64,000 nt of DNA from Candidatus Omnitrophota bacterium. GTDB taxonomy: Bacteria; Omnitrophota; Gorgyraeia; Zapsychrales; Fredricksoniimonadaceae. Below, in pieces: positions 1-42,938 of this stretch. The position numbers and the translations under genes are program-made. Numbering within the stretch: position 1 is the first letter of the stretch; the number at the start of each line of letters is the position of its first letter. Where the stretch lies: positions 17,391 to 81,390 of the forward strand of contig CAIUQE010000034.1 in the NCBI GenBank assembly GCA_903901225.1. Direction: 5' to 3'. The notes under the pieces were generated by a model, which was not told where the DNA came from, ran no database searches, and was given only the letters and a program-made list of their open reading frames with translations.

Positions 1-625
1 CTGAATGAACCTTCTCGGCTATATTATCCGAAAGAATAATATCGCCCCACCCATAAGAACTGAACGGCATCAACCTTCCCTCAAGCCCGATGAATTTTTT
101 GCCCTTAAGGTAATGGTTTGTCTTTTGATAATCACGGAACAGATCAATAAATCCTTTGAGGGCGGCGTCGCTCACGCTGAAAACCTGTATGACAGTATTT
201 TCCATGATACGATCATCCCTCATGCTGACGCAAAAAGGACTGCCCTTCCATTTGAAAAAGATCGTTGCGCGTGACCATACCGCCTCATAAATTCCCGGCA
301 TGACCTCTAAATCACGAAAAAGAGGATAAGAAACCCGCGGTTCGCTGTATCTCTCGCTCTCATAATTACCCTCTTCAAGTGTCTCAGCCTGCTCGGAAAG
401 TATCTTCTTCAAGCAGTAAACAGTATTGTTCAACAATATCCCGCTGATCTTCTGCTCATTGATCCGAAGGGTCGCAAGCCGGTCGCGTGACATGGCAAAA
501 TGCCTTGCCAATGCCTGCTGCTTCTCATCATATTCCCTGACTTCATCGTACTGGATCCTGGCGGTTACATAGCGTTCAAACCCCCGATCGATCCAATTCT
601 CAACAAATGCCTTTATCCCGTCCAT
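1..625 (-). CDS. hypothetical protein, 3'-truncated by the window edge (208+ aa; ATG at 625-623)
   Basis: I translated the minus strand by hand from the ATG at 625 down to nt 1 and found no stop. It is not in the ORF track because it has no stop inside the window. It overlaps and is more protein-like than the plus-strand ORF at 5..274. It has no recognisable family. The C-terminal part, ending KFIGLEGRLMPFSSYGWGDIIL, could precede a P-loop domain. Confidence 0.4.
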   Translation of the reverse strand, partial: MDGIKAFVENWIDRGFERYVTARIQYDEVREYDEKQQALARHFAMSRDRLATLRINEQKISGILLNNTVYCLKKILSEQAETLEEGNYESERYSEPRVSYPLFRDLEVMPGIYEAVWSRATIFFKWKGSPFCVSMRDDRIMENTVIQVFSVSDAALKGFIDLFRDYQKTNHYLKGKKFIGLEGRLMPFSSYGWGDIILSDNIAEKVHS

Positions 626-698
626 GCCAACCCCCCTGTCTTTGTATTTCTACAAGCATAACAGGGGGTGGCGACAGCATTGTGTCGCGGATATAAAC

Positions 699-735
699 AA
701 AAAGCCGGACAGCATTTTGTGCCGTCCGGCTAGCA
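699..735 (-). terminator. rho-independent terminator downstream of the 792..1385 gene
   Basis: Read on the minus strand this is a GCCGGAC..GTCCGGC hairpin followed by TTTTTGTTTATA. It sits 60 nt past the stop of the 792..1385 CDS. Confidence 0.55.
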
Positions 736-791
736 GAAAGAAAATATTAAAGTTTATAGTTTAACCTTATTGCCCTTAATTAGAACATGAA

Positions 792-1385
792 TCAGATCGC
801 CCTAACATTTGCTTCTATTTCATGTAAGAACGCCGACACAATAGGGAAATTGTTCAAAGTATCCTTAACTTGCCCGTCATTTAGAAAATGCTCGAAAAAT
901 TCTTGAGAATTAATATGCGGCATATGCCTGCTGAAAAAGTCTACAACTTCATCGACAAATAGTTTTGCCGCCGATACTGAATTCTCTTCAATATAACGGT
1001 CGCTCACGACATGATCTTGCAAAGGCACCTGGATAAGCAACAAGGGATTCTGATTGTGCGGTCCGAGTCCACACCAGCCAAACTTAGGATATCTCGTTAA
1101 ATCTCGAAATCTTCTATAATCCTGTGGATAGTATGTGAACATTATTTGATCGCTAGCAACAGTAATGAACATGGAGAAAATAAACCATGTTTTCGTCTGT
1201 TCGTCATCAAATAACCCAACTGCGCGCCTCCAGGATTCTGCGTCGAAGAAAGAATCCCCCGGATTAGTGGCATTCGTACCTGGAACAAAACTTATTCTTT
1301 TAAAATCATTTCGAAATTCCTCCAAATAGTATCCCCTAATGTCGTTTGGCATCCTATTCTCCATTTTATTTTGCTGGGCTCTCAT
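792..1385 (-). CDS. hypothetical protein (197 aa)
   Basis: Intact ORF in the low-GC island with no recognisable motifs. Confidence 0.5.
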   Translation of the reverse strand: MRAQQNKMENRMPNDIRGYYLEEFRNDFKRISFVPGTNATNPGDSFFDAESWRRAVGLFDDEQTKTWFIFSMFITVASDQIMFTYYPQDYRRFRDLTRYPKFGWCGLGPHNQNPLLLIQVPLQDHVVSDRYIEENSVSAAKLFVDEVVDFFSRHMPHINSQEFFEHFLNDGQVKDTLNNFPIVSAFLHEIEANVRAI

Positions 1386-1441
1386 ATACTTTTCAACATT
1401 CTACCTTCAGCCTACCTTTATCTCAAGAATCAAATATCAAC

Positions 1442-2014
1442 TCAATGTTTCTTATTCCTGTTCGCATGCGATCCTACGCTAAGAAGTAAATACACGGCGA
1501 TAAAACCCACCGTGATCACAAAACCGAGAACAATTTGGAACAAGTTGATAATAAATGACTCACACGCGTTCTTTGTCCAGCGCGTTGTCCTCCCAAAAGG
1601 CAGGCAGCACATGGCCAAAGTAACAAGCGTTGATATTATAGGACAACCCGGCCAGGTTTTATTGGACGGCTCCAGCTTTAAAGAACAAATCGTTAGATCG
1701 GAATGTCCAAAACAACCGTTCAACCACATACATCCCACAATTAACCATATCCCCACATAAATGAAAACATTGCTCCAGGCAAACAACGGATAATCGTACA
1801 GTTCCCTTACCCTCTCCTTGTAACTATAAATCCCCCAACTTAACAACACCCAGACAACCACGCAGCCGACAAATATAAGCGTCCCTTCCCAGGTAACACC
1901 AAGCATCGTCAATTCCTTCACAATGCTCCAGTTCATCACCCAGTTTGATATTTGCCCTAAGTAGCCCTGTGCATGGATCGTGCCCATAAACAAATACCGC
2001 CCTTTTCCTAACAT
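1442..2014 (-). CDS. hypothetical integral membrane protein (about 4 TM segments)
   Basis: Several hydrophobic helices, e.g. TLIFVGCVVVWVLLSWGIY and IVLGFVITVGFIAVYLLL. The true start is uncertain. Confidence 0.4.
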   Translation of the reverse strand: MLGKGRYLFMGTIHAQGYLGQISNWVMNWSIVKELTMLGVTWEGTLIFVGCVVVWVLLSWGIYSYKERVRELYDYPLFAWSNVFIYVGIWLIVGCMWLNGCFGHSDLTICSLKLEPSNKTWPGCPIISTLVTLAMCCLPFGRTTRWTKNACESFIINLFQIVLGFVITVGFIAVYLLLSVGSHANRNKKH

Positions 2015-2051
2015 TACCTACGACTCATTCTCTAAACCATCCCGACAATTG

Positions 2052-2438
2052 CTATGAAACAATCCCTTCAATGATCAAGGGGCTCCCCTTGTTCTCAGGC
2101 AGGCAACTTTTATCCGGAAAAAAAGTGATCATTTCGGGGCAACAAACACCGACAACATTCTTTTTCAGGCCGCTCCACTTCACAAGATAAGCAGGGATCG
2201 GGATCCTCATGAAACCATGCTTCTTTAAATCGATTTCATTGGTCCCTTTAATTAACGTGTCCAAAAGGTCGCTTGCGGCCTTACTCCCCAACTGCTGTCG
2301 CAACTTCTTCCCCATTTGGAGCCATTCTTTCTTGGGAAACATATAAAGCCCCGCCCTCTTTCCTCTAATTAGGAAAACTTTCTCAAACTTGTTCTTTTGT
2401 AAGAAGTCTTTTAGCTTCGCATTGATGACAATGTTCAT
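2052..2438 (-). CDS. MraZ-like (duplicated SpoVT/AbrB-type) putative DNA-binding protein
   Basis: Two-half architecture resembling MraZ: FLIRGKRAGLYMFPKKEW and ...KKHGFMRIPIPAYLVKWSGL. Its stop overlaps the phosphatase gene by 4 nt (ATGA). Confidence 0.35.
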   Translation of the reverse strand: MNIVINAKLKDFLQKNKFEKVFLIRGKRAGLYMFPKKEWLQMGKKLRQQLGSKAASDLLDTLIKGTNEIDLKKHGFMRIPIPAYLVKWSGLKKNVVGVCCPEMITFFPDKSCLPENKGSPLIIEGIVS

Positions 2439-2887
2439 ATAGCGCTTTCCTTAGACAAAAACCTCACCGCCGCACCGGTTCGATCTCTTCCGGCACTACA
2501 ATGAACCAGCACAGGCTTGGGCAAACCTCGAAATGCCTCCAGCACTCCCCGCGATTCTTCCGGTGATAAAGCCGGCGACTTATGATCCCGCACAGGAATA
2601 TGCACCACATCAAAACCTTTCTTTCTGTAATAAGCAACAAGCCCTTCCGTTACATCATAAAACTTGAGTTGCTCGTCATCGAGGAGGCATATAATTGACC
2701 TTATTCCGCTCTCTTGAATTGGCTCAAGCCATCGATCAACCTCCGCCTGCCCGATCCCCTGCTTCTTTGGATATCCAGGCCGCAAACTTCTAGCTAACAC
2801 ACCTTCTTTTACCCATTCAATCCCAAAACCAATACTTTCCCTTACCATGAGAGCCTCCTTATTAACTGGATAGATCATAAAGCACAA
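2435..2887 (-). CDS. protein-tyrosine / dual-specificity phosphatase family protein
   Basis: CX5R catalytic P-loop VHCSAGRDRTG. Confidence 0.7.
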   Translation of the reverse strand: MCFMIYPVNKEALMVRESIGFGIEWVKEGVLARSLRPGYPKKQGIGQAEVDRWLEPIQESGIRSIICLLDDEQLKFYDVTEGLVAYYRKKGFDVVHIPVRDHKSPALSPEESRGVLEAFRGLPKPVLVHCSAGRDRTGAAVRFLSKESAI

Positions 2888-2898
2888 AAGCGACGACC

Positions 2899-3171
2899 TT
2901 ATGTCGCACCCCTGGCAGTTTCAGGATATTTCCTGAATAAATACAGCATTCCTAACGTCAAGACCAGGTTAGCCACGCCGCTTGCGATAAATACAGGCTC
3001 CCTGATGGCGATCGCCCGGATCAGATAACAGGCTATTGCGACGAACAATATCTGATATGTCATCACGCTTAACCCTTTCGTTGACCGCTCTCTGACGGAT
3101 TTAACCAACTGCGGGATCGATGTCAGCATGCCAAGAACCATCCCAACCCATCCTATTGCCTCAGTCCACAT
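2899..3171 (-). CDS. SemiSWEET / PQ-loop (MtN3-like) small transporter
   Basis: 90 aa with three TM helices and a PQ motif in TM1 (LTSIPQLVKS). Confidence 0.6.
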   Translation of the reverse strand: MWTEAIGWVGMVLGMLTSIPQLVKSVRERSTKGLSVMTYQILFVAIACYLIRAIAIREPVFIASGVANLVLTLGMLYLFRKYPETARGAT

Positions 3172-3254
3172 ACCTCGCCTTTCTTTCGTTTAACGTCTTT
3201 ACTTCCTGTGACAAGGATACAACAATGTGGCGACATCATTATGTCGCGTTAAAA

Positions 3255-3290
3255 TAAAAAAGCCGGACAGCATTTTGTGCCGTCCAGCTT
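3255..3290 (-). terminator. rho-independent terminator downstream of the yhaV-like gene (second copy of the repeated hairpin element)
   Basis: AAAAAAGCCGGACAGCATTTTGTGCCGTCCAGCT. On the minus strand this is a hairpin followed by a T-run. Confidence 0.5.
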
Positions 3291-3365
3291 GATGATTCAG
3301 TTGAAAACAATACTATCTTCTATGCCATCAACTTTCAAATCCGCCTTACCCGCGATCCTAACGCA

Positions 3366-3818
3366 TCAATACTGGTAGCGCCGGATCCATTTCTGAATAG
3401 CAGGATCTTGAGGATCGTGGGAAGTCTTTCCGCCTCTGACCATCTGCTTAAATTCCTCATAAGGATCATTCCCACCCCCCTGCTTCCTCAAATGATCTTT
3501 ATCGTTAACATATAGATAAATGATAATGCCAGGTTTGTTCGAGAAGCAAAACATGATCCTGTACCGCTGCAACCCCTGTTTGTACCTTCTGTACTTCCTA
3601 AGATCACCGGAAAGCACGTATTCAGGCCTGTTGGGATCTTCTGGAATGATCTCTACCGTGGCCCTTCTGATCCTTGCAGCCAGTTTTACCGTCTCATGCT
3701 GGGAAAATTCATCCTTTGAAAGAGTGGCATGTAATTTCTTTACCTGCTCTTTCAGCTTGCCGATCCGCAGGGCAAATAACTCATGGCATTTGAGATAATA
3801 CTTACTCATCTTCCGCAT
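3366..3818 (-). CDS. yhaV: type II toxin-antitoxin system YhaV-family toxin
   Basis: Clear similarity to E. coli YhaV as I recall its sequence. RYRIMFCFSNKPGIIIYLYVNDKDHLRKQGGGNDPYEEFKQMVRGG matches RYRLFFRYSEKEKVIILGWMNDENTLRTYGKKTDAYTVFSKMLKRG. Confidence 0.75.
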   Translation of the reverse strand: MRKMSKYYLKCHELFALRIGKLKEQVKKLHATLSKDEFSQHETVKLAARIRRATVEIIPEDPNRPEYVLSGDLRKYRRYKQGLQRYRIMFCFSNKPGIIIYLYVNDKDHLRKQGGGNDPYEEFKQMVRGGKTSHDPQDPAIQKWIRRYQY

Positions 3819-5082
3819 CCACGCCTTTTAACAACATATCCCACTCTTTATCCCAGACCTTGTGCATGTCCTGCAACTTATGGGGATTCTTTAAAGAGTC
3901 CTCCACCAATGCTTTAATGAACGTCTTGAACTCAGGTTCTGATTCAATGTTTTCCAGCGTGTTCTTGGACACCATGATCAGACGGTCTTTATCATACTTA
4001 ATTATGATCTCAGTATTACCCGACCCGACGAACTCTTTGGGAAGATCTATCGCGCAGCTTCCACACTCCTTCAAATATCCATCCACCATCGCCCTGATCT
4101 CAGCCTTGAATGGCGCCGGCTCCAGGACCGTCAAACACGGGATCCAATGCATGATCAGGTGTTTGATCTCCTCGGGATGTGCCGGAAACGTTGCGATCAC
4201 CATAGAACCGTCAGAGCATTCCTCAACGGTCTTCTGAAGCGGGAAGAAACAACACGACTTGAAATATGGAACAACTTCCGGCGCGACGCGGATCAGGACG
4301 CGATCACCGCGCTTTTCGTCAAACCAGATATTCACACTCTCATCCAGGATCTTGTTGATATCGAGCTGCGGGCTGAAATAATCATCTTCCAGGTTTTGGA
4401 CATCCCTGATCCGGTCGACACGGTACTTCTGGATCTGCTTCTCCCCGTTCTTTATGGCGATCAAATACCAGAAGCCGCCGTAAAACGCGAGCTTGAGCGG
4501 TTCAAGATAATATTCTTTTTCGACCTGGGCCGCGTTGATGTATTTCATCCGGATGCGGTTGCTTTCAATGATAGCGGCCTGAAGAAAGCCGACCTCGGTC
4601 GTCGCCGGCAAAGGCAACTGCTGGGCTGACACCTTCACATAAAACGGCGAATCGAGCTTCTTCATGGTCACGCGCGAAAAAAGGTCCTTGAAAGAATTTT
4701 CAAATGTCTGACCCAGATCCGTGGCCATTTCGAACAGGAACGACATGAGTGACGCCTGTTCCTGGGTCAGCGAAAATTTGCGCAGCGTATACCCGGCAAG
4801 GAACGAATACCTGCCTTTATCCGGCCCGAGAATAGGGATCCCCGCTTCTTTAAGCACGGTCAGGTCACGTTCGATCGTGCGCTGGACAACATCGAATTCC
4901 TTAACAAGATGCTCAATTGAAACGGAATTGCCTTGATCAAGGACTGAAAGGATGGCAATACGGCGCGCGGCAGCCTTCTTTTGAGATTCCGGCATCTTTT
5001 TCTCAGCGGACCTCTTGAAGGTTACAGTTTTTTTCTCACGACGTGTCCGAGCCTTCTTCACGGCCTTCTTTTTTACCGGCAT
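3802..5082 (-). CDS. HTH-WYL-WCX transcriptional regulator fused in-frame to a PrlF-like (SpoVT/AbrB) antitoxin domain
   Basis: HTH at IAILSVLDQGNSVSIEHLVKEFDVVQRTIERDL and WYL motif FYGGFWYLIAIKNGEKQIQKYRVDRIRDV. The C-terminal 95 aa (nt 3802-4089) resemble PrlF (FIKALVEDSLKNPHKL...LLKGVDAEDE vs FLRFLDADIQNNPQK...LVAGMDVNIDDEIGDDE). The likely start is the ATG at 5082-5080, 2 nt after the DUF2779 stop. The ORF track extends it to 5151. Confidence 0.7.
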   Translation of the reverse strand: MPVKKKAVKKARTRREKKTVTFKRSAEKKMPESQKKAAARRIAILSVLDQGNSVSIEHLVKEFDVVQRTIERDLTVLKEAGIPILGPDKGRYSFLAGYTLRKFSLTQEQASLMSFLFEMATDLGQTFENSFKDLFSRVTMKKLDSPFYVKVSAQQLPLPATTEVGFLQAAIIESNRIRMKYINAAQVEKEYYLEPLKLAFYGGFWYLIAIKNGEKQIQKYRVDRIRDVQNLEDDYFSPQLDINKILDESVNIWFDEKRGDRVLIRVAPEVVPYFKSCCFFPLQKTVEECSDGSMVIATFPAHPEEIKHLIMHWIPCLTVLEPAPFKAEIRAMVDGYLKECGSCAIDLPKEFVGSGNTEIIIKYDKDRLIMVSKNTLENIESEPEFKTFIKALVEDSLKNPHKLQDMHKVWDKEWDMLLKGVDAEDE

Positions 5083-5084
5083 AG

Positions 5085-6647
5085 TCAACCTTTCGTAATG
5101 ACCCTTAACGCAGTCAGGATATCTACCATTCCACCTGTGTCCAACCCGCAATATGCCTCCAGATCAGCATAAACTTTGGCACGATCAATCGGGTCAACGC
5201 CCGCGCCGTAAGTTACCCTGGAATATTCTGACGTGGCCTGCCCGCCGTCGGCAATGGGCATTCCCTCATAACCCTTGCCTGTTAAAGCCGGCAGGACCTT
5301 CTTGAGCGACGCGGAGCCGTGCTCATCAGGGTGGTAATAATAGAACTTCTGGAATGGCACCAGAAGATCGACCAGACGGAGGTTGATATCTTCACAGCAC
5401 TGCCGGTACGCGGGGAACTGCTCGCCTATCTCCTTCAAACGCAATTTCTCAAAGGACTGGTTGTACGCCACCACATCCCCTTCCTGCCCCATGCAGGCGC
5501 TTAAAGCTTTGATGAATTCCAGGCGAGGATCATCGGCCTTTTTATGCAGAAAAGCATGATGTTCAACCGGCCCGCCGGGCGTTCTTTGAATATGCACAGA
5601 GAACTGGAACGGGATCTGCTGGTACGGCCGCGTGCCATTAAAGCGCGGCAGGACCTCGAAGATCGTCTCAAAATCCATAAAGTAGAGCGGGTAGCGCAAA
5701 CTTTTGATGAACGTATTGATCTCATCAAGTTCCACATGCGGTTGTTGCGTTATCGCGCAAACACGCTGGATCTGCTGGTTGGCCGACAGTTTAACGTTAT
5801 CAGGAATATCTTTAAGGCGTAAAACACCCTGGTCGATAAGGTCAAACCCTTTGGACTTCCCCCGATACAGCTCAAGCACGTGCTCCCTGGGAAGGAACGC
5901 CCAGCAGATCGGGATCATCTGGCACTCGTAAGGATCGCGGCAATGCTCCCTTATCGATATGTGCGGACACGCGGGCATGTCGATGATATCGAGAAACCCC
6001 TTCACCAACGACGGTGTCACACCGTAGAACGGCTTGATCTCTTCCGTGACATCAAGCAGGGTAAATAATTCATGGGGGTTAATATCCCCGTCACGCACAT
6101 ACGTGTTATTCACGTGCATCAAATAGCAGCGGCCGATCCTGATCCCGGCCTGTTCGTAACAATAACGCTGGAACGCGATGTCCTGTAAATAGACATCCTT
6201 GCACTTCGTCGAGCATTTCACCTCGATCACGTCCCAGACGCCGGGCTTTTCAGGTGAAGGCCGCAGGATATCCGCGCGGGCATAAAGCCGCCCCGCCTTG
6301 ATCCCAGCCTCATAGATGGGCTTCGGGTCTTTTGACGCTAATAGCGCCTGCGTTTCCGCCAGGTTCTTCAAAAAATCATCTTCCTGGACATGAACCCCTC
6401 CCGGAAAGCACCTGGTCGCCAATTCACTGACGAGATGGCCCGTATCGAAAACTTTCTGCAGCGCGGCGGTCGGTTCGGGAATTTCTAGCGGGGCATTGCA
6501 ACGCGTCCAGAGCAATTTAGGGCACTGCAAGCCGTTGAGGAATTTGGACTTGGTAAGAAGCTTCGGGTCCCTGCGGACTTTTGTTTCGATCAAGAACTCC
6601 AGCAAACCGTCGCTGCGTTCTTCCTGATAAAGGTTCTCTTCACTCAT
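5085..6647 (-). CDS. DUF2779-family protein (PD-(D/E)xK nuclease-like N-terminus and a DxE exonuclease-like motif)
   Basis: VWDVIEVKCSTK has a D..EVK motif. YFMDFETIFE is the DUF2779 signature. Length is 520 aa. Confidence 0.65.
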   Translation of the reverse strand: MSEENLYQEERSDGLLEFLIETKVRRDPKLLTKSKFLNGLQCPKLLWTRCNAPLEIPEPTAALQKVFDTGHLVSELATRCFPGGVHVQEDDFLKNLAETQALLASKDPKPIYEAGIKAGRLYARADILRPSPEKPGVWDVIEVKCSTKCKDVYLQDIAFQRYCYEQAGIRIGRCYLMHVNNTYVRDGDINPHELFTLLDVTEEIKPFYGVTPSLVKGFLDIIDMPACPHISIREHCRDPYECQMIPICWAFLPREHVLELYRGKSKGFDLIDQGVLRLKDIPDNVKLSANQQIQRVCAITQQPHVELDEINTFIKSLRYPLYFMDFETIFEVLPRFNGTRPYQQIPFQFSVHIQRTPGGPVEHHAFLHKKADDPRLEFIKALSACMGQEGDVVAYNQSFEKLRLKEIGEQFPAYRQCCEDINLRLVDLLVPFQKFYYYHPDEHGSASLKKVLPALTGKGYEGMPIADGGQATSEYSRVTYGAGVDPIDRAKVYADLEAYCGLDTGGMVDILTALRVITKG

Positions 6648-7257
6648 GGTGATCAGACCTCCACGTCATTGTTTTAAAGTATAGCCGATGCGAAACACTT
6701 TTGATAATGAAAACTTCTGCCGCATCCCTTACCCGACAGCTTCTTCACGGATATCCTCAAAGCGCATATACTGCCCCTGAAAACGCAGCATTACAGCGCC
6801 CAATGGACCATTGCGGTGTTTTCTGACACAAACCTGCATTTTTCCAAGATCAGCGACCGTGGCGCCTTAATTGAGCGGGATATTTCACTGATCTCCTGCT
6901 GACGGTCCTTTTTACCTTCCAATATAAAAGGTAGCTACGACAGCGTTATGTCGCTATTTTATAAATCAGTCTTAACCCCTCCTCCTGTTATCCCCGTATT
7001 GTAAATCTTTCATATTATGGGGACACCCGAAACTTTGATCTCTTGATGACGAGAATCCGAGCTGAAATCGTCGTCGCCCCACCGGGCGGACACAAGGTCC
7101 GCCCCTACGCTCACAATAATCATCCTCTCGATTTGCTAAAGATTTACGCAAAAACGCGGGGGAGGGCTTCATTAAGGCCATCGCTTCAATAAACTTTCAC
7201 ACCCCGGAAGCATGGAAATTCTTGTGGATTTGACGGCGTGTTGTAAAATACAGTCCT

Positions 7258-13898: not shown

Positions 13899-14599
13899 CG
13901 TCCGACCAGGGAATAAAAATGTTCAGGGACCGGCGCATTGAACGTCATGCGTTCCTTTGTTTTGGGATGCGGGAAAGAGATCGCGTAGGAGTGCAGTGCA
14001 AGAAAAGGATACTTGGCGCCAGGCCTTCCATACTTCGTATCACCGACGAGCGGATGCCCGTGATGCGCCATGTGGACACGGATCTGGTTCTTGCGCCCGG
14101 TCAGAAGGTCAATTTCAAGCAGGCTGTATCTGTCCGTCGCCTTGATAACTTTATACGCCGTGCGAGCGAGCTTGCCGTCTTCCGCTTCTTCCAGGGAATG
14201 CACGCGGTACTTGTCATCCTCGACCAGATAGCTTTCGATCAACCCCTCGGGCTTGGCCAGGCGCCCGTGCACGACGGCATAATATGTTTTTTTGGTATCA
14301 GGCCAGTTGTTCTTGAGGGTCTGCTGGATCGTTTCACTCTTCGCAAAAATGAGCACACCTGACGTTTCCCGGTCCAGCCGGTGCACGACGTAAACACAAC
14401 GGTGCGAACGGGAATTGCCCTTGCGCACGTAAAGATTAAGAAGCTGGTGAACGGTCCGCTCACGCTCATACATCGCGGCGACGGTGAGAAGGCCAGCCGC
14501 CTTGTTGCCAACGATGATGTCATCGTCATCATAAAGAATGTGAAAACCTTTGGGCTGATGCTTTCCCGAGACAGGTTTATTGGTATGCCGCGCCATCAT
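13889..14599 (-). CDS. RluA-family pseudouridine synthase
   Basis: HRLDRETSGVLIFAKS catalytic motif. Its start overlaps the stop of giant gene 1. Confidence 0.8.
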   Translation of the reverse strand: MMARHTNKPVSGKHQPKGFHILYDDDDIIVGNKAAGLLTVAAMYERERTVHQLLNLYVRKGNSRSHRCVYVVHRLDRETSGVLIFAKSETIQQTLKNNWPDTKKTYYAVVHGRLAKPEGLIESYLVEDDKYRVHSLEEAEDGKLARTAYKVIKATDRYSLLEIDLLTGRKNQIRVHMAHHGHPLVGDTKYGRPGAKYPFLALHSYAISFPHPKTKERMTFNAPVPEHFYSLVGRWA

Positions 14600-17500
14600 T
14601 TTCCTTCCATTACCGCCGCTCCGGCGCCGTTGAACAAAGGCAGCCCCGCCGCCGGACGTATGTTCAAAATAACCGGCACCAGGCCGTCGATGTGGATATT
14701 GTCCAGGTCCTGCTGGGCTACCGGCAAAGGCACCCCGGCGCCGTCGCGCTTGATCTGCATGTCGAGATTGGAGGCGGCGAAATCGATACCGCCTGGCTGA
14801 ACAACTTTCTCTGCCATGTCAGAAGACTCTGAATTTGATCCAGTTACTTTGCGTTTCGATGTTGTCGCGGCCTGATCAGGAAACCGGCTTATATCCTCTA
14901 TCGGTCGTTCCGATTTAATTAAAAGCCAGTCGTCTCCCCTGAATGATATCCCATCAATCCCATAAATGTAAGCCACAACATCAATCAAATAAGGTGCCAA
15001 ATGCCATAAATTATGATCAAATTCATCGTTATCAAAAACTTTAAACATCTCATTGCGAATTAAAGATACGGAACTATCAGACACGACATCCCCATCAAAT
15101 GAAATCTTGACCCAGGAATCTGATTCCTGTAAAAATTTTAACAATGCCCTGTTCCCATTATTAACAAAAGTCCAAATGGATCTTCCATTAAAATAAGATT
15201 CCGCCTTACCCCACGAAAATCCATCACGACAAATATGCTCGACATCTTCGGGCGATTGAGTAACTCGCTTATGATTAACCTCATGGAACAATTCAAGAAT
15301 TTTTCTTTCTCTACCAGAATAATACGATCCCATCTCCAGGACAAACTTTGCCAGCTTCCTGCTTTGAATTAACGCCTGCCGTAGCGTTCTTTGAGAACCT
15401 TCTTTTAACGGATCATCCAGTGTAGGAAAAACATACGGCATTTCAGCGATAGCTCGACCCAACAATCCCGGCATCAGCTCCATACCAACAGAATTGAACA
15501 ATGTAAAATTGTTATTCTGCGTATCATTCCGCAACCAAACCTCTTCTCCTCCCGGGGCAACAAAGCGCAGATTGAGCTCAATCTGAGCGAAGGCTGATGG
15601 AGGGGTAAATCTTGCTTCCAGAATATAATTACCATCCCCGTCACGCTCATCCGTGGCCGTCAATGCCAACGGCAGATCGCTCTCGGGTGCAGACCAGTCA
15701 TGATAACTGATGCCAACCTCGTCAATATCAAAATGGCTAAAACGGACAAAACCTTTTATGGCCCTAAGATACCTGTCGAGTCGCTCGCGGGACATCTGTT
15801 TGTCATTCAGCGCCATGGCGAACCTGAGGGCAACCTGCCCCTGTTTGTCGACAACGACCTCGGATCCACTCGGCTGCTGGATATGCCCGGCCCAGACTAA
15901 CTTCACCCCAGATAGATCACCCGCCGCATCTGTTACGGCCTGGCTTTGATCCGGAACATTCTTTTTCAATTCAGCCACACGATATTCAAGATATTCCGGC
16001 AACGTCATGGAAACCGCGGGAAAATCAATGTGCTCATATTTTTTGCGCAATGTTAATCCCATTTTCATTTGAGCCACCAGCGACATCGCGTCCCCCATCG
16101 ACGCCGCGCCCCGCCCGAAAGGGTTCGCCTGAAAGAACCACCATTCATATTCGGCAAGCGCCGACAACCGATTATCCATCCTCAACGCATCATCCATGAT
16201 CCGATCCCATAATTGAGTCAAGTGTTCCATAATAGCAGGGATATCCGTATCGTTAGCGTTATAAAGCAGGATCGCGTCTCCCTGGTCATCCATCTTCTGC
16301 ACATACATTACGCCCGTCGACCCGATCTCCTGCTCATGAGAATAACGCCTGAAATCAGATTCAGTGTACGATTTCACAAACCCGGGATGGCTTAACCGCT
16401 GGTGCAGCATTTTATACAGATCGCCATACCTGTTAGAACCCCGGATGCGCGTGGCCGGAATAAGATCATCTGGCAACCCCAGGAACCTTGTTTGAGAATC
16501 GATACGAAGATCCTCGGCCACCCTGCCTTCACTCGGACGCACGCCCGTTTCAGCCGCCGTCAACCGCGCCTGAAAAACTGAATGCAATATCCTTATATGC
16601 CTTTGTTCGGGCCTTTTGAACAAAGAAACGACCATGGCGGCCATGATCTTGCCGAAACGGTAATTAGTATCAAATCCGGAATTTTTAGGGGCACTCATGA
16701 TCTTGCGGACCTTCCTCTCCAGAAGATCATAATATTGGAACTCAGGAACAGCTACAGCCCCAAGCCCTTCGAAACCACGCCATGTTCTTATGCCAACATC
16801 CTGCGCCAGGTCCTTCGTCGCCGCAGCCTGGCCGGACCAGTTCATCCCGTTTGCCGGCTCTAGATCCGGAACATTCTTTTTCAGTTCAGCTACGCGATAT
16901 TCAAGATATTCCGGCAACGTCATGGATAACGCGCGGAAATCAAGGTTCTCGTAACCAACACGTATCGATAACCCCATCTTCAGCTGGGCCACCATCGACA
17001 TCGCGTCTCCCAAAGCCGCCCCGCCCCTCCCGAAAGGATTCGCCTGGAAGAACCACCATTCATATTCAGGGAGCACTGACAAACGACGGTCCATACCCAG
17101 CGTGGCATCCATCATCGTATCCCATAGTTCAGTCAAATGCCGCATAATGACAGGAACATCCGGATCTCTGGCGCTATAGATCCGGATCGACGTGCCAAAA
17201 GAATCAATGATCTGTTGATACATCCCGCCCGTTGATCCAATTTTCTGGTCACGGAAATATCGTACGCCATTGGTAATATAATGATTTTCTGAAAATCCTT
17301 TTTCCAGCAGTCGTTGATGTACCATTTGATACAATTTTTGATACCTTCCGGAATTCCGAACAGAGATGTATGGCGTACCGTCGATCCATTCTAAAGTCAA
17401 ACCTGAAAGTCTTGCCTCTGAAACATTACGAAAAACTCCCACAACTGTATAGTCATCAATACTCAGCTGTTCAGAAGCCACTGACAGGCGTGCCTTAACC

Positions 17501-41606: not shown

Positions 41607-42938
41607 CTATCTTATGAACCGCACCGCGCGGACCCTTTCCAGAAGAGAACCCTTGGACGTGCCGGAACCCGGCGAAAGATCGCTCACGACCACGCGCCCC
41701 AGCGCGACGAACACCTCGCGGCCGCCCTTCATTTCACGGTAACCTGACGTCGCGTGAATGGCATAAAGCCCGCCGTCAACCTCCCCAAGGTAAAGCATGA
41801 CATGCCCCTTGAGGCACAACAGCGTCGCCCCCGCGAGCGCCTGGCGGGCAATGGCCTCCGCCTTATCCGGCGCCTTAAATGAAATATCGAACTCCGCGAT
41901 GGGCAGGCCCGCTCTCGCCTGCTGGGCGGAATTGCGCGGCAGGTCAAACCCCATGGTCGCGAAAACCATGCGGATGAATCGCGAACAATCCTGCCCGCCG
42001 TTGCTGTCACCCCAGCCGTAGGGCGCGTCGAGCAGTTTGAACGCCTGGGTGATCGCGGCGCGGGGAGTATACGGAAGATCCCCCTCGGCCACATCGTTGC
42101 GCGCGATAAAAGCGCTGACCCATCTGGCCCGGCCGTCAGCACGGCGCAACGCGTAAACGACCTCAACCGCCTGCGGCGTCTGTCCCTTGAGCGCGAACCT
42201 GTCGCCCATCCGGGCCGTAGCCGCGGCGAACCACAACCCCGGGCCTAAGCAGACACGCGCGCGCGGCGCCGTGATAACAACAAAGATCTTGGGCGCAAGG
42301 ATGGCCCGCCAGGCATCTTCATCCGTCAACGCGATGTCGCGGGCGCGGACCCAGCCCGAGGAAACACCGTCCTTGATGAAGAACCACCGGTTATCCGCGG
42401 TCTCATGCAGGACAACGACGGGCGTGCCCGCGCTTATCCCGCTGTCCTGGACCTCGTCGAACCCGGTGTCGTTGCGTTGGGCATAAAGCGGCTCTTCCGT
42501 CGGGACACAACGTATGCGCGTGAAAGTTGTTGCCACGGCATAACGCGTGACGAGCCAGGGGCCAAGCCGGGAAAAGTTCATGTTCTGCCGCAGCGGCGTA
42601 AAGAACCCGTCGCCCGCCACGGACCCGTCGCGGCGGAAAAGCCTGTTCTGACGCAGATGCTCACCCGCCTTGAAAGCCTCGGCCCTGAGCTCGACCAAAG
42701 GGATCTTATGGGGGTACGCGGCAAGGTCATCCGTAAGCCGGTTGGCCACGAGGCCCTTGTTGAAGGCCGTGATCTCAGCCGGGGCCATCAGCACCTTGTC
42801 CGGCGCCGAATGCCGGTCAAGCCATAACCGGGGCGAACGCATCGCGGCCGTGACGCGGGGCAATGTGCCGGCGCACGCCGGGTCGACGATCGCCACGCCA
42901 ACACTGATCAGGAAAAGAAACGACAACATTGTCCGCAT
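41607..42938 (-). CDS. secreted NlpC/P60-family peptidoglycan hydrolase
   Basis: Signal peptide MRTMLSFLFLISVGVAIVDPACAG. DCSRFIRMVF catalytic Cys motif. The ORF track's extension to 43568 is high-GC read-through. Confidence 0.65.
   Translation of the reverse strand: MRTMLSFLFLISVGVAIVDPACAGTLPRVTAAMRSPRLWLDRHSAPDKVLMAPAEITAFNKGLVANRLTDDLAAYPHKIPLVELRAEAFKAGEHLRQNRLFRRDGSVAGDGFFTPLRQNMNFSRLGPWLVTRYAVATTFTRIRCVPTEEPLYAQRNDTGFDEVQDSGISAGTPVVVLHETADNRWFFIKDGVSSGWVRARDIALTDEDAWRAILAPKIFVVITAPRARVCLGPGLWFAAATARMGDRFALKGQTPQAVEVVYALRRADGRARWVSAFIARNDVAEGDLPYTPRAAITQAFKLLDAPYGWGDSNGGQDCSRFIRMVFATMGFDLPRNSAQQARAGLPIAEFDISFKAPDKAEAIARQALAGATLLCLKGHVMLYLGEVDGGLYAIHATSGYREMKGGREVFVALGRVVVSDLSPGSGTSKGSLLERVRAVRFIR

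Follow-up and report, generated by a model that had tools for sequence, protein, structure and literature searches.

A stretch of 64,000 nucleotides (nt) from a Candidatus Omnitrophota bacterium (contig CAIUQE010000034.1, positions 17,391 to 81,390; hereafter the window) begins with a low-GC island in which a gene of the uncharacterised DUF2779 family is followed by a gene for a WYL-type transcription regulator fused in frame to a PrlF-like antitoxin, and then by a gene for a YhaV-family toxin. Comparison of this locus with its relatives revealed that DUF2779 and a specific clade of regulators with winged helix-turn-helix, WYL and WCX domains (wHTH-WYL-WCX; clade WYL below) are a conserved pair in mosaic islands from several phyla. 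Our favoured explanation of the locus combines this conserved pair with an island-wide promoter switch activated by single-stranded DNA (ssDNA) and a toxin-antitoxin pair captured later. For these three elements taken together, we estimate a joint probability of about 0.6.

DUF2779 and its WYL partner

Linkage between the two genes was assessed in the close clade, defined as DUF2779 proteins at 55% identity or more, which provides eight distinct loci with enough flanking sequence. A clade WYL gene lies within 5.2 kb of DUF2779, on the same strand, in 8/8 of these loci. The two genes are adjacent in the window and in loci L086, L003 and L095/P0038, with gaps of -4 to +16 nt; the WYL gene lies 0.6-2.7 kb downstream of DUF2779 in L100 and L096 and 2.7-5.2 kb upstream in L082 and L083. 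Genes found between the pair in relatives have no Pfam assignment, except an HSDR_N-like protein and a GIY-YIG nuclease. All-against-all clustering of 14 islands identified only DUF2779 and WYL as common to most of them.

The island of the window holds a second set of these genes (L176:16866-19910), which lies outside the window, ~10.6 kb past its start towards the minus-strand side. Its members are DUF2779-2 (66% identical to the window protein), a GIY-YIG nuclease of 142 amino acids (aa) and WYL-2 (339 aa, 58% identical, ending at the same position); a DnaB_C-like gene and DUF6745 come before them. The Omnitrophota protein P0009 shares 78% identity with DUF2779-2. A recent tandem duplication of two DUF2779-WYL modules was considered and rejected, because their divergence (66% and 58% identity) is as great as that of copies from other metagenome-assembled genomes (MAGs).

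The DUF2779 gene itself, an open reading frame (ORF) running from 6647 to 5085 on the minus strand, encodes 520 aa and matches Pfam PF11074 over residues 322-447 (E=3e-42, 144.3 bits against a gathering cut-off of 23.3); its AlphaFold2 model has a predicted local distance difference test score (pLDDT) of 89.8. Domain analysis predicted an N-terminal Cas4-like PD-(D/E)xK nuclease domain (residues ~30-260, positions 5868-6560) with D126, E142-V-K144, Q160xxY and four cysteines, and a C-terminal DEDDy 3'-5' exonuclease domain of RNase-H fold (residues ~317-520, positions 5088-5699) with D325xE327, D427 and Y499xxxD503. In an alignment of 20 homologues, the invariant columns comprise D126...E142-V143-K144, Q160xxY and Cys42/236/242/248 in the N-terminal domain, and F323-M-D325-F-E327-T328, D427 and Y499xxxD503 in the C-terminal domain. 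An earlier note, made from the sequence of the window alone, had called the protein nuclease-like on account of the motifs D..EVK and FMDFET; both are present and invariant in this alignment, and the description is borne out by two predicted nuclease domains. The four-cysteine motif C42/C236/C242/C248 corresponds to the Cas4-type Fe-S ligand pattern. The ORF reads as a fusion of two predicted nucleases, a Cas4-like Fe-S PD-(D/E)xK enzyme and a DEDDy 3'-5' exonuclease. Both domain assignments have already been published (PMC3985635, as RNase-H-like family F.17; PMC13621843, for MMSYN1_0389), and no report of nuclease biochemistry for any DUF2779 member was found in the literature searched.

The DUF2779 family is large, with 4109 matches at E<=1e-5 among 8000 candidates scored, and ranges over many bacterial phyla and DPANN archaea. 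Plasmid records with DUF2779 number 33 (Arcobacter, Helicobacter and others, at 30-37% identity). A typical phage origin was rejected, since tblastn found no DUF2779 in GenBank phages and IMG/VR contains only five DUF2779 loci; PHROGs has no family for DUF2779, and the neighbouring genes match only families of unknown function or ATPases. No cas genes occur within 10 kb on either side in the annotated neighbourhood, and Rfam gave no match window-wide, although no dedicated scan for CRISPR arrays (tandem repeats) was made.

A wider neighbour survey covered 80 representative genome loci of the family. Immediately downstream of DUF2779, 2 of 68 loci have a WYL gene and 5 of 68 a gene for a TPR protein; on the upstream side, the neighbours include ResIII (3 of 70) and GmrSD_N, NERD, UvrD and UDG (two each). 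A toxin-antitoxin pair was never the immediate neighbour in this survey. The earlier note had named DUF2779 homologues that sit consistently in housekeeping repair contexts, without WYL or toxin-antitoxin linkage, as the finding that would refute its reading; the outcome is divided. The wider family is indeed heterogeneous in this respect, whereas within the clade the link to WYL is systematic. Separately, in a related genome an AbiEii/AbiEi pair (L086:8461-9880) lies directly upstream of the DUF2779-WYL pair, at the edge of housekeeping genes, a further example of a toxin-antitoxin or abortive-infection cassette beside this module.

Among distant loci (DUF2779 at 32-35% identity), boxes of the type CGACA-N5-TGTCG, which are associated with the regulator DriD, precede the DUF2779 start by 86-180 nt in L153, L155 and L166. 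These four sites (L153:9880, L155:7495 and 7565, L166:1044) compare with ~0.05 expected in all upstream 300-nt windows together. Further distant loci listed with this group are L161, L164 and L169, and a WYL gene overlaps the DUF2779 stop in L153 and L164. This pattern suggests that WYL regulons recurrently include DUF2779 among their targets.

These data bear on the view that DUF2779 is an ordinary housekeeping repair nuclease whose WYL neighbour is incidental. Most family members have unrelated neighbours, and the mycoplasma homologue MMSYN1_0389 is quasi-essential in the minimal cell JCVI-syn3 (PMC13621843), both as such a role would predict. However, the pairing with WYL is systematic in the clade and duplicated within the island, the gene lies in low-GC island DNA, and DriD-type N5 boxes stand 86-180 nt upstream of distant DUF2779 genes in three loci. 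We therefore regard a purely housekeeping role as very improbable.

A promoter signature shared across the island

On the minus strand of the window, the DUF2779 stop (5087-5085) is separated by 2 nt from the WYL ATG at 5082 (...AAA GGT TGA CT ATG CCG...), which confirms the gene at 5085-6647 and the gap reported in the earlier note; this spacing would be consistent with translational coupling. The yhaV ATG in turn overlaps the stop of the fusion gene, WYL::PrlF, by 8 nt (GATGAGTAA). DUF2779 is the first gene of a predicted three-gene unit, DUF2779-WYL::PrlF-YhaV, bounded by a promoter motif at 6953-6921 and by a putative intrinsic terminator at 3290-3260 (minus strand; 13-bp stem with 7 GC pairs, T-run). 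The T-run of the terminator is followed immediately by the next promoter box, an arrangement repeated in related islands. Between the promoter and the DUF2779 ATG lies an unusually long 5' leader of ~265 nt (6648-6920, minus strand). It has a match to a sigma70-like promoter at 6707-6678 and an inverted repeat at 6847-6856 / 6885-6894, and the 3' end of a DnaB_C-like gene survives in it as a weak relic at 6845-6750, recognisable at the protein level (C-terminus, 37% over 32 aa).

Alignment of the regions upstream of clade DUF2779 and WYL genes revealed a palindromic box with the consensus GCGACA-N6-TGTCGC-N10-TAnnnT (equivalent to CGACA-N6-TGTCG-N11-TAnnnT) and no -35 element. Four predicted promoters of this WYL type were located in the window, all on the minus strand. 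The first (6921-6953) precedes the DUF2779 unit and consists of a perfect box (CGACATAACGCTGTCG, 6953-6938), an 11-nt spacer and the -10 hexamer TATATT (6926-6921), with no -35 element. The second (3214-3246; box and TATCCT) precedes a PQ-loop gene (3171-2899), the third (2874-2906; box with one mismatch and TATGAT) a group of phosphatase, MraZ-like and hypothetical genes, and the fourth (655-687; box and TATGCT) an AAA ATPase gene that runs off the window start. Each of the four stands ahead of a gene or gene group, directly after the terminator of the preceding unit.

The box is strongly enriched and confined to the island. Perfect CGACA-N6-TGTCG boxes occur three times in the 64 kb against 0.04 expected, and the full motif with at most one mismatch four times, where 0.02 would be expected; none of these copies falls outside the island, and all four full motifs are on the gene strand. 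Across loci, 57 perfect boxes were found in 20 loci with a clade WYL gene (340 kb), with all 20 loci represented, compared with none in loci that have only distant WYL matches (310 kb) and four in loci without a detected WYL gene (1.43 Mb), two of the latter belonging to the same island as L083. Spacings of N5 and N7 are virtually absent from clade loci.

The position of the box is equally constant. Distinct sites are intergenic in 30 of 35 cases, and TAnnnT follows exactly 11 nt past TGTCG in the gene direction at 29 of 34 sites, compared with three on the other strand. A -35-like hexamer is absent, with ~2 of 6 matches on average at 17-nt spacing. Searches allowing up to two mismatches showed no enrichment (41 sites against 29.7 expected), and only perfect boxes or full motifs with one mismatch are informative. 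The sole near-perfect box outside the island (42324-42339, one mismatch, CGTCAACGCGATGTCG) is probably a chance occurrence, about two being expected. Because the box also precedes PQ-loop, phosphatase, AAA ATPase and DnaB-like genes, the predicted regulated unit is the whole mosaic island and not a three-gene cassette.

A profile of the clade WYL proteins, compared with solved structures, matched PafBC best (1.5e-12), followed by DriD (~1e-7), with no BrxR or CapW entry at E<=0.01. The putative recognition helix R68-T-I-E71-R72-D73 aligns with PafB S-R46-M-F-E-R50-D; R72 is invariant in the clade, and R68 is replaced by K in two homologues. PafB recognises the two GTC guanines through R46 and R50 (PMC8635444), and DriD uses R37 and R41 (PMC10853764). 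Six of the ten ssDNA-contact positions of DriD are kept or conservatively replaced (Y181, K189, Y206, Y220, R221 and W253), and these are invariant or nearly so in the clade.

Known promoters of both regulators resemble the island promoters. PafBC promoters have the form tGTCgg(N10)tA(N3)T; they lack a -35 and carry instead a "-26 element" that covers -28 to -23 (PMC8635444). The DriD box, ATACGAC(N7)GTCGTAT, which equals CGACA-N5-TGTCG, overlaps the missing -35 at a constant distance to the -10, and DriD activates once ssDNA fills its WYL domain (PMC10853764, PMC13004042, PMC9186387). Since the island box matches the DriD box as well as the geometry of the PafBC "-26 element", the WYL protein probably belongs to the DriD/PafBC-type class of ssDNA-activated activators.

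The main alternative for WYL regulation has the opposite sign: a CapW/BrxR-like repressor would occlude the promoter and leave it upon binding ssDNA. A repressor on the box, which covers about -40 to -23, would likewise block RNA polymerase; CapW is an ssDNA-sensing wHTH-WYL-WCX repressor (PMC11662680), and the WYL proteins of islands and defence loci described so far are mostly repressors (PMC9122601). Against this stand promoters without a -35 match, the hallmark of DriD- and PafBC-dependent promoters (PMC8635444, PMC13004042), a half-site and an N10 spacing to TAnnnT that equal the PafBC motif, and the structural profile search, which returned PafBC and DriD and, at E<=0.01, neither BrxR nor CapW. 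It is only the missing -35 element that argues for activation rather than repression, and we consider repression possible, though not likely.

The island that these promoters appear to serve differs sharply from its flank in composition, with a GC content of 0.40-0.53 over positions 1-7000 compared with 0.58-0.65, in agreement with the low-GC island of the earlier note. Its genes form a co-directional array. Islands of this type carry a mosaic cargo of AAA ATPases, DUF6745/MORN proteins, PQ-loop proteins, phosphatases, the DnaB_C-like gene, PAD_porph, TPR proteins and others. Given the low GC, the co-directional array, a large serine recombinase and an HTH_3 gene adjoining the P0038 module, the Bro-N protein of L100, AbiEii/AbiEi ahead of the L086 module, the presence of one such island on an IMG/VR contig, and 60-69% identity across MAGs labelled Omnitrophota and Planctomycetales, the island is probably a mobile mosaic element. 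No phage structural genes and no PHROG signal were found for the island, and Rfam and tRNA scans of the whole window returned nothing, with no tRNA-type integration site identified.

Among the cargo of the window, the segments 2052-2887 and 2899-3171, each with its own WYL-type promoter, encode a 90-aa PQ-loop membrane protein, a DSP/PTP phosphatase of Tc-R-P type (~137-150 aa) and a protein of 128 aa that weakly resembles MraZ. Related islands likewise contain PQ-loop proteins and Tc-R-P/PTP-SAK phosphatases (L083, L081, L013 and the P0038 contig). The island also encodes, at L176:13626-14372 and 16054-16800, a pair of 248-aa paralogues that combine MORN repeats with DUF6745 and share 40% identity; further DUF6745 proteins are present in the islands of L082 and L083. 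Elsewhere in the window, three very long minus-strand ORFs (14596-19686, 1696 aa; 22260-25886, 1208 aa; 49272-56699, 2475 aa) lie in segments with a GC content of 0.48-0.54, below that of their surroundings; the first has a weak AvrB_AvrC match in the precomputed annotation.

The regulator-antitoxin fusion and the captured toxin

The fusion gene (5082-3802, minus strand; 426 aa) encodes HTH_11/DeoR, WYL and WCX domains over residues 40-334, followed by a tail of 86 residues. Residues 1-340 (4063-5082) make up a complete wHTH-WYL-WCX regulator (Pfam HTH_11/DeoR 40-85, WYL 167-229, WCX 261-334), in which every clade-invariant residue is retained. Residues 341-426 plus the stop (3802-4062) constitute the in-frame PrlF-like part, equal to residues 13-98 of the stand-alone antitoxin. 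Hidden Markov models (HMMs) match this tail weakly (Pfam E=0.16, NCBIfam E=0.038); its assignment to PrlF rests not on them but on ~90% identity, from antitoxin residue 13 on, to the 98-aa stand-alone antitoxins beside close YhaV relatives. With the first 12 residues absent, the fused part is without the first beta-strand of the AbrB-like fold. At the codon level the junction reads ...GAG TGT(C340) / GGA AGC..., the last WYL codon being followed by prlF codon 13, and it has the appearance of a simple deletion between short similar sequences (TTG AAG and TTT AAG).

The fusion is a singleton among 5.8 billion clustered proteins, in which the 31 other WYL homologues (256-342 aa) all end in ...GYLKxC at the C340 position. 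A search of 1.84 billion representatives with the WCX-plus-tail segment gave 153 matches, each to one part only and never to both. The fusion is not an assembly artefact, since it is present on 29 contigs and 4 kb of sequence agree fully among three loci assembled independently. AlphaFold2 modelling of the fusion was uninformative (pLDDT 53.5, tail <50). An in-frame ATG (4087-4089, Met332) lies nine codons ahead of the junction; its use would give a 95-aa product (MVDGYLKECGSCAIDLPKEF...) that would mimic the free 98-aa antitoxin, with no promoter or good ribosome-binding site seen.

The toxin gene (3366-3809, minus strand) encodes a YhaV-family protein of 147 aa (Pfam Toxin_YhaV PF11663, 2.8e-26, 92.7 bits against a cut-off of 35). 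Close YhaV relatives, 84-89% identical, are found in housekeeping contexts, each beside a free 98-aa antitoxin with the same 8-nt overlap. At the DNA level, the segment from 4075 to 3368 is 86% identical, without gaps, to a stand-alone prlF-yhaV cassette, and homology stops at the yhaV stop. Relative to stand-alone pairs, the tail has a ratio of nonsynonymous to synonymous divergence (dN/dS) of 0.08 and YhaV one of 0.06-0.09, with dS at 0.6-1.2; both have thus been kept under purifying selection along the combined path. YhaV occurs in none (0 of ~170) of the other DUF2779 loci. Judged by these sequence comparisons, the prlF-yhaV cassette is a lineage-specific addition, captured later than the DUF2779-WYL pair, with a complete WYL ORF joined at its stop codon to prlF codon 13.

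The fusion could have been an accident without new function, in which a deletion joined WYL to prlF, the tail still works or YhaV is inactive, and WYL-2 regulates the island. Its uniqueness among the 5.8 billion clustered proteins and 1.84 billion representatives fits such an origin, as do the second intact WYL paralogue 13 kb away and a junction that looks like a simple deletion at short similarity. However, the identical locus recurs on contigs from several independent samples (the 29 contigs with the fusion), the WYL part keeps every clade-invariant residue, the in-frame join preserves the entire WYL sequence, and tail and toxin have dN/dS of ~0.08. An accident of this kind thus seems improbable.

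A further proposal is that WYL::PrlF is an ssDNA-gated antitoxin, whose ligand, produced by DUF2779 or by DNA damage, would both switch on the island promoters and shift the PrlF tail, releasing the YhaV RNase. BrxR-family proteins have a C-terminal strap that covers the WYL domain (PMC9122601), an arrangement that would place the C-terminus near the ligand-binding domain. We hold this gating to be doubtful; if true, it would represent a new wiring of a type II toxin directly to a nucleic-acid sensor.

The earlier note had likened the nuclease, the regulator and the toxin-antitoxin pair to a compact defence or abortive-infection module; in such a module, DUF2779 would attack invader DNA, WYL would sense the fragments, and released YhaV would stop translation. 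Several features are in keeping with this idea: the three genes form one predicted unit with tight junctions, WYL regulators are common companions of defence systems and toxin-antitoxin pairs (PMC9122601, PMC4012209), some DUF2779 genes adjoin ResIII, GmrSD, NERD or AbiE genes, and the toxin is physically tethered to a ligand-sensing protein. The link between DUF2779 and WYL that it presupposes held up, in all eight clade loci and in the second set. The toxin-antitoxin part did not: YhaV is confined to one lineage, the fusion is unique, and the other 31 clade WYL proteins have no effector tail, so the three-part module is not conserved. The same promoter box also precedes unrelated cargo units. 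A defence-system scan with PADLOC-DB v2 found no system, yielding only a Cas4 domain match (E=0.0024) and generic WYL/Csa3 matches, and none for YhaV or five further neighbours. Taken as a three-gene defence cassette, the locus is unlikely to be correctly described.

Proposed mechanism and relation to known systems

In the explanation we favour, the conserved pair with its island-wide switch and captured cassette, the WYL protein would serve as the master switch of a probably mobile island. By analogy with DriD and PafBC, a WYL dimer would bind the palindrome and, with ssDNA in its WYL domain, recruit RNA polymerase to the -35-less island promoters. Possible sources of the ssDNA signal are DNA damage, an intermediate of the element's replication or transfer, and the degradation of invader DNA. 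DUF2779, made together with the switch, would degrade or resect DNA ends or ssDNA with both polarities; it might create or, more likely, clear the ssDNA signal, or else process element or foreign DNA.

The prlF-yhaV cassette would have landed behind the WYL gene, and a deletion would then have removed the WYL stop, the cassette promoter and 12 codons. Antitoxin supply would now be slaved to the WYL promoter and reading frame, with YhaV held on the C-terminus of the regulator. The simplest role of the captured pair is most likely addiction, that is, stabilisation of the regulatory locus.

Several points weigh against this explanation. Most of the DUF2779 family has no WYL neighbour. Four of the ten DriD ssDNA contacts are not kept (S172A, R178Y, K202Q and R204Q). 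The box stands 290 nt from the DUF2779 ATG, an atypically long distance compared with the 8-120 nt between box and DUF2779 start in relatives; because of this distance and the sigma70-like promoter in the leader, the box at 6953-6938 may not be the sole driver of the DUF2779 unit. The island contains two WYL paralogues that are indistinguishable as box binders. That WYL binds the box, what its ligand is and in which direction it regulates are inferred, as are, from purifying selection and an intact toxin, the folding of the truncated AbrB-like part and the neutralisation of YhaV by the tail. The signal-shaping role of DUF2779 is conjectural. The case for mobility is indirect, as the far end of the island, an integrase and att sites were not found for the window organism.

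These findings give DUF2779, a widespread and uncharacterised two-nuclease protein, a concrete regulatory context: predicted co-transcription with WYL in one clade and DriD-type boxes in another. Together these point to a role for DUF2779 in a response triggered by ssDNA or DNA damage. The PafBC-type -26 geometry has so far been described in actinobacteria, and the related DriD arrangement in Caulobacter; here the PafBC-type geometry is seen in uncultivated lineages, among them MAGs labelled Omnitrophota and Planctomycetales, on whose mosaic islands it would act as an island-wide common switch. The motif CGACA-N6-TGTCG-N11-TAnnnT offers a simple signature for finding the transcription units of such islands. 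WYL::PrlF, for its part, represents a natural experiment in which a toxin antidote became part of a ligand-sensing transcription factor and, gating or not, the fusion illustrates how toxin-antitoxin cassettes lodge in regulatory genes.

Among known regulators, DriD of Caulobacter crescentus, an SOS-independent DNA-damage activator, shares with the window protein the wHTH-WYL-WCX order, a palindrome with CGAC/GTCG half-sites that is presumably bound by a homodimer, a box that replaces the -35, and the helix pattern R..ER. The similarity is remote (E ~1e-7), however, and the window spacer is one base longer (CGACA-N6-TGTCG versus N5). The predicted regulon in the window is a low-GC mosaic island, whereas that of DriD consists of dispersed chromosomal repair genes, and the window regulator is predicted to be co-transcribed downstream of DUF2779 and bears an antitoxin tail.

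PafBC, the mycobacterial DNA-damage activator that works by "sigma adaptation", is the best-scoring solved relative; its promoters share the arrangement TGTCG(G/C)-N10-TAnnnT without a -35, and its two-arginine RxxERD helix for the GTC triplet is likewise matched (PMC8635444, PMC11804915). It differs in binding a non-palindromic half-site as a heterodimer or fused tandem, and only with RNA polymerase present, whereas the window has a full palindrome and a single-gene regulator, in another lineage and with no link to proteasome genes. CapW and BrxR, repressors of CBASS, BREX and defence islands, have the same wHTH-WYL-WCX architecture and control neighbouring island genes, as is predicted for the window, and BrxR homologues often adjoin toxin-antitoxin pairs (PMC9122601). 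These proteins repress otherwise functional promoters, and no known defence system is under control in the window.

With respect to the toxin, the locus resembles the type II PrlF-YhaV system of E. coli in its YhaV-family toxin, in an antitoxin gene directly upstream with overlapping stop and start, and in the PrlF-like C-terminal half of the antitoxin. Unlike that system, the window antitoxin is not a free protein of 98-111 aa but residues 341-426 of a 426-aa WYL factor, and it is without the first AbrB-type beta-strand and without its own promoter and operator.

The DUF2779 protein has the two-domain fusion and the catalytic residues in common with MMSYN1_0389 (PMC13621843). It has the full set of four Cas4-type cysteines, compared with two in the mycoplasma protein, and it is island-borne with a WYL partner, whereas the mycoplasma gene is chromosomal and quasi-essential. 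Compared with UU173-type proteins it is ~130 residues shorter, with an NCBIfam match of 32 bits against a cut-off of 225. It also differs from the CRISPR-associated prespacer-trimming nucleases Cas4 and Cas2-DEDDh in joining both predicted activities in one polypeptide. Relative to all these systems, what is new here is the pairing of DUF2779 with WYL, a DriD/PafBC-type promoter signature that extends over the island and lies outside the taxa described so far, and a unique fusion of a WYL regulator to an antitoxin.

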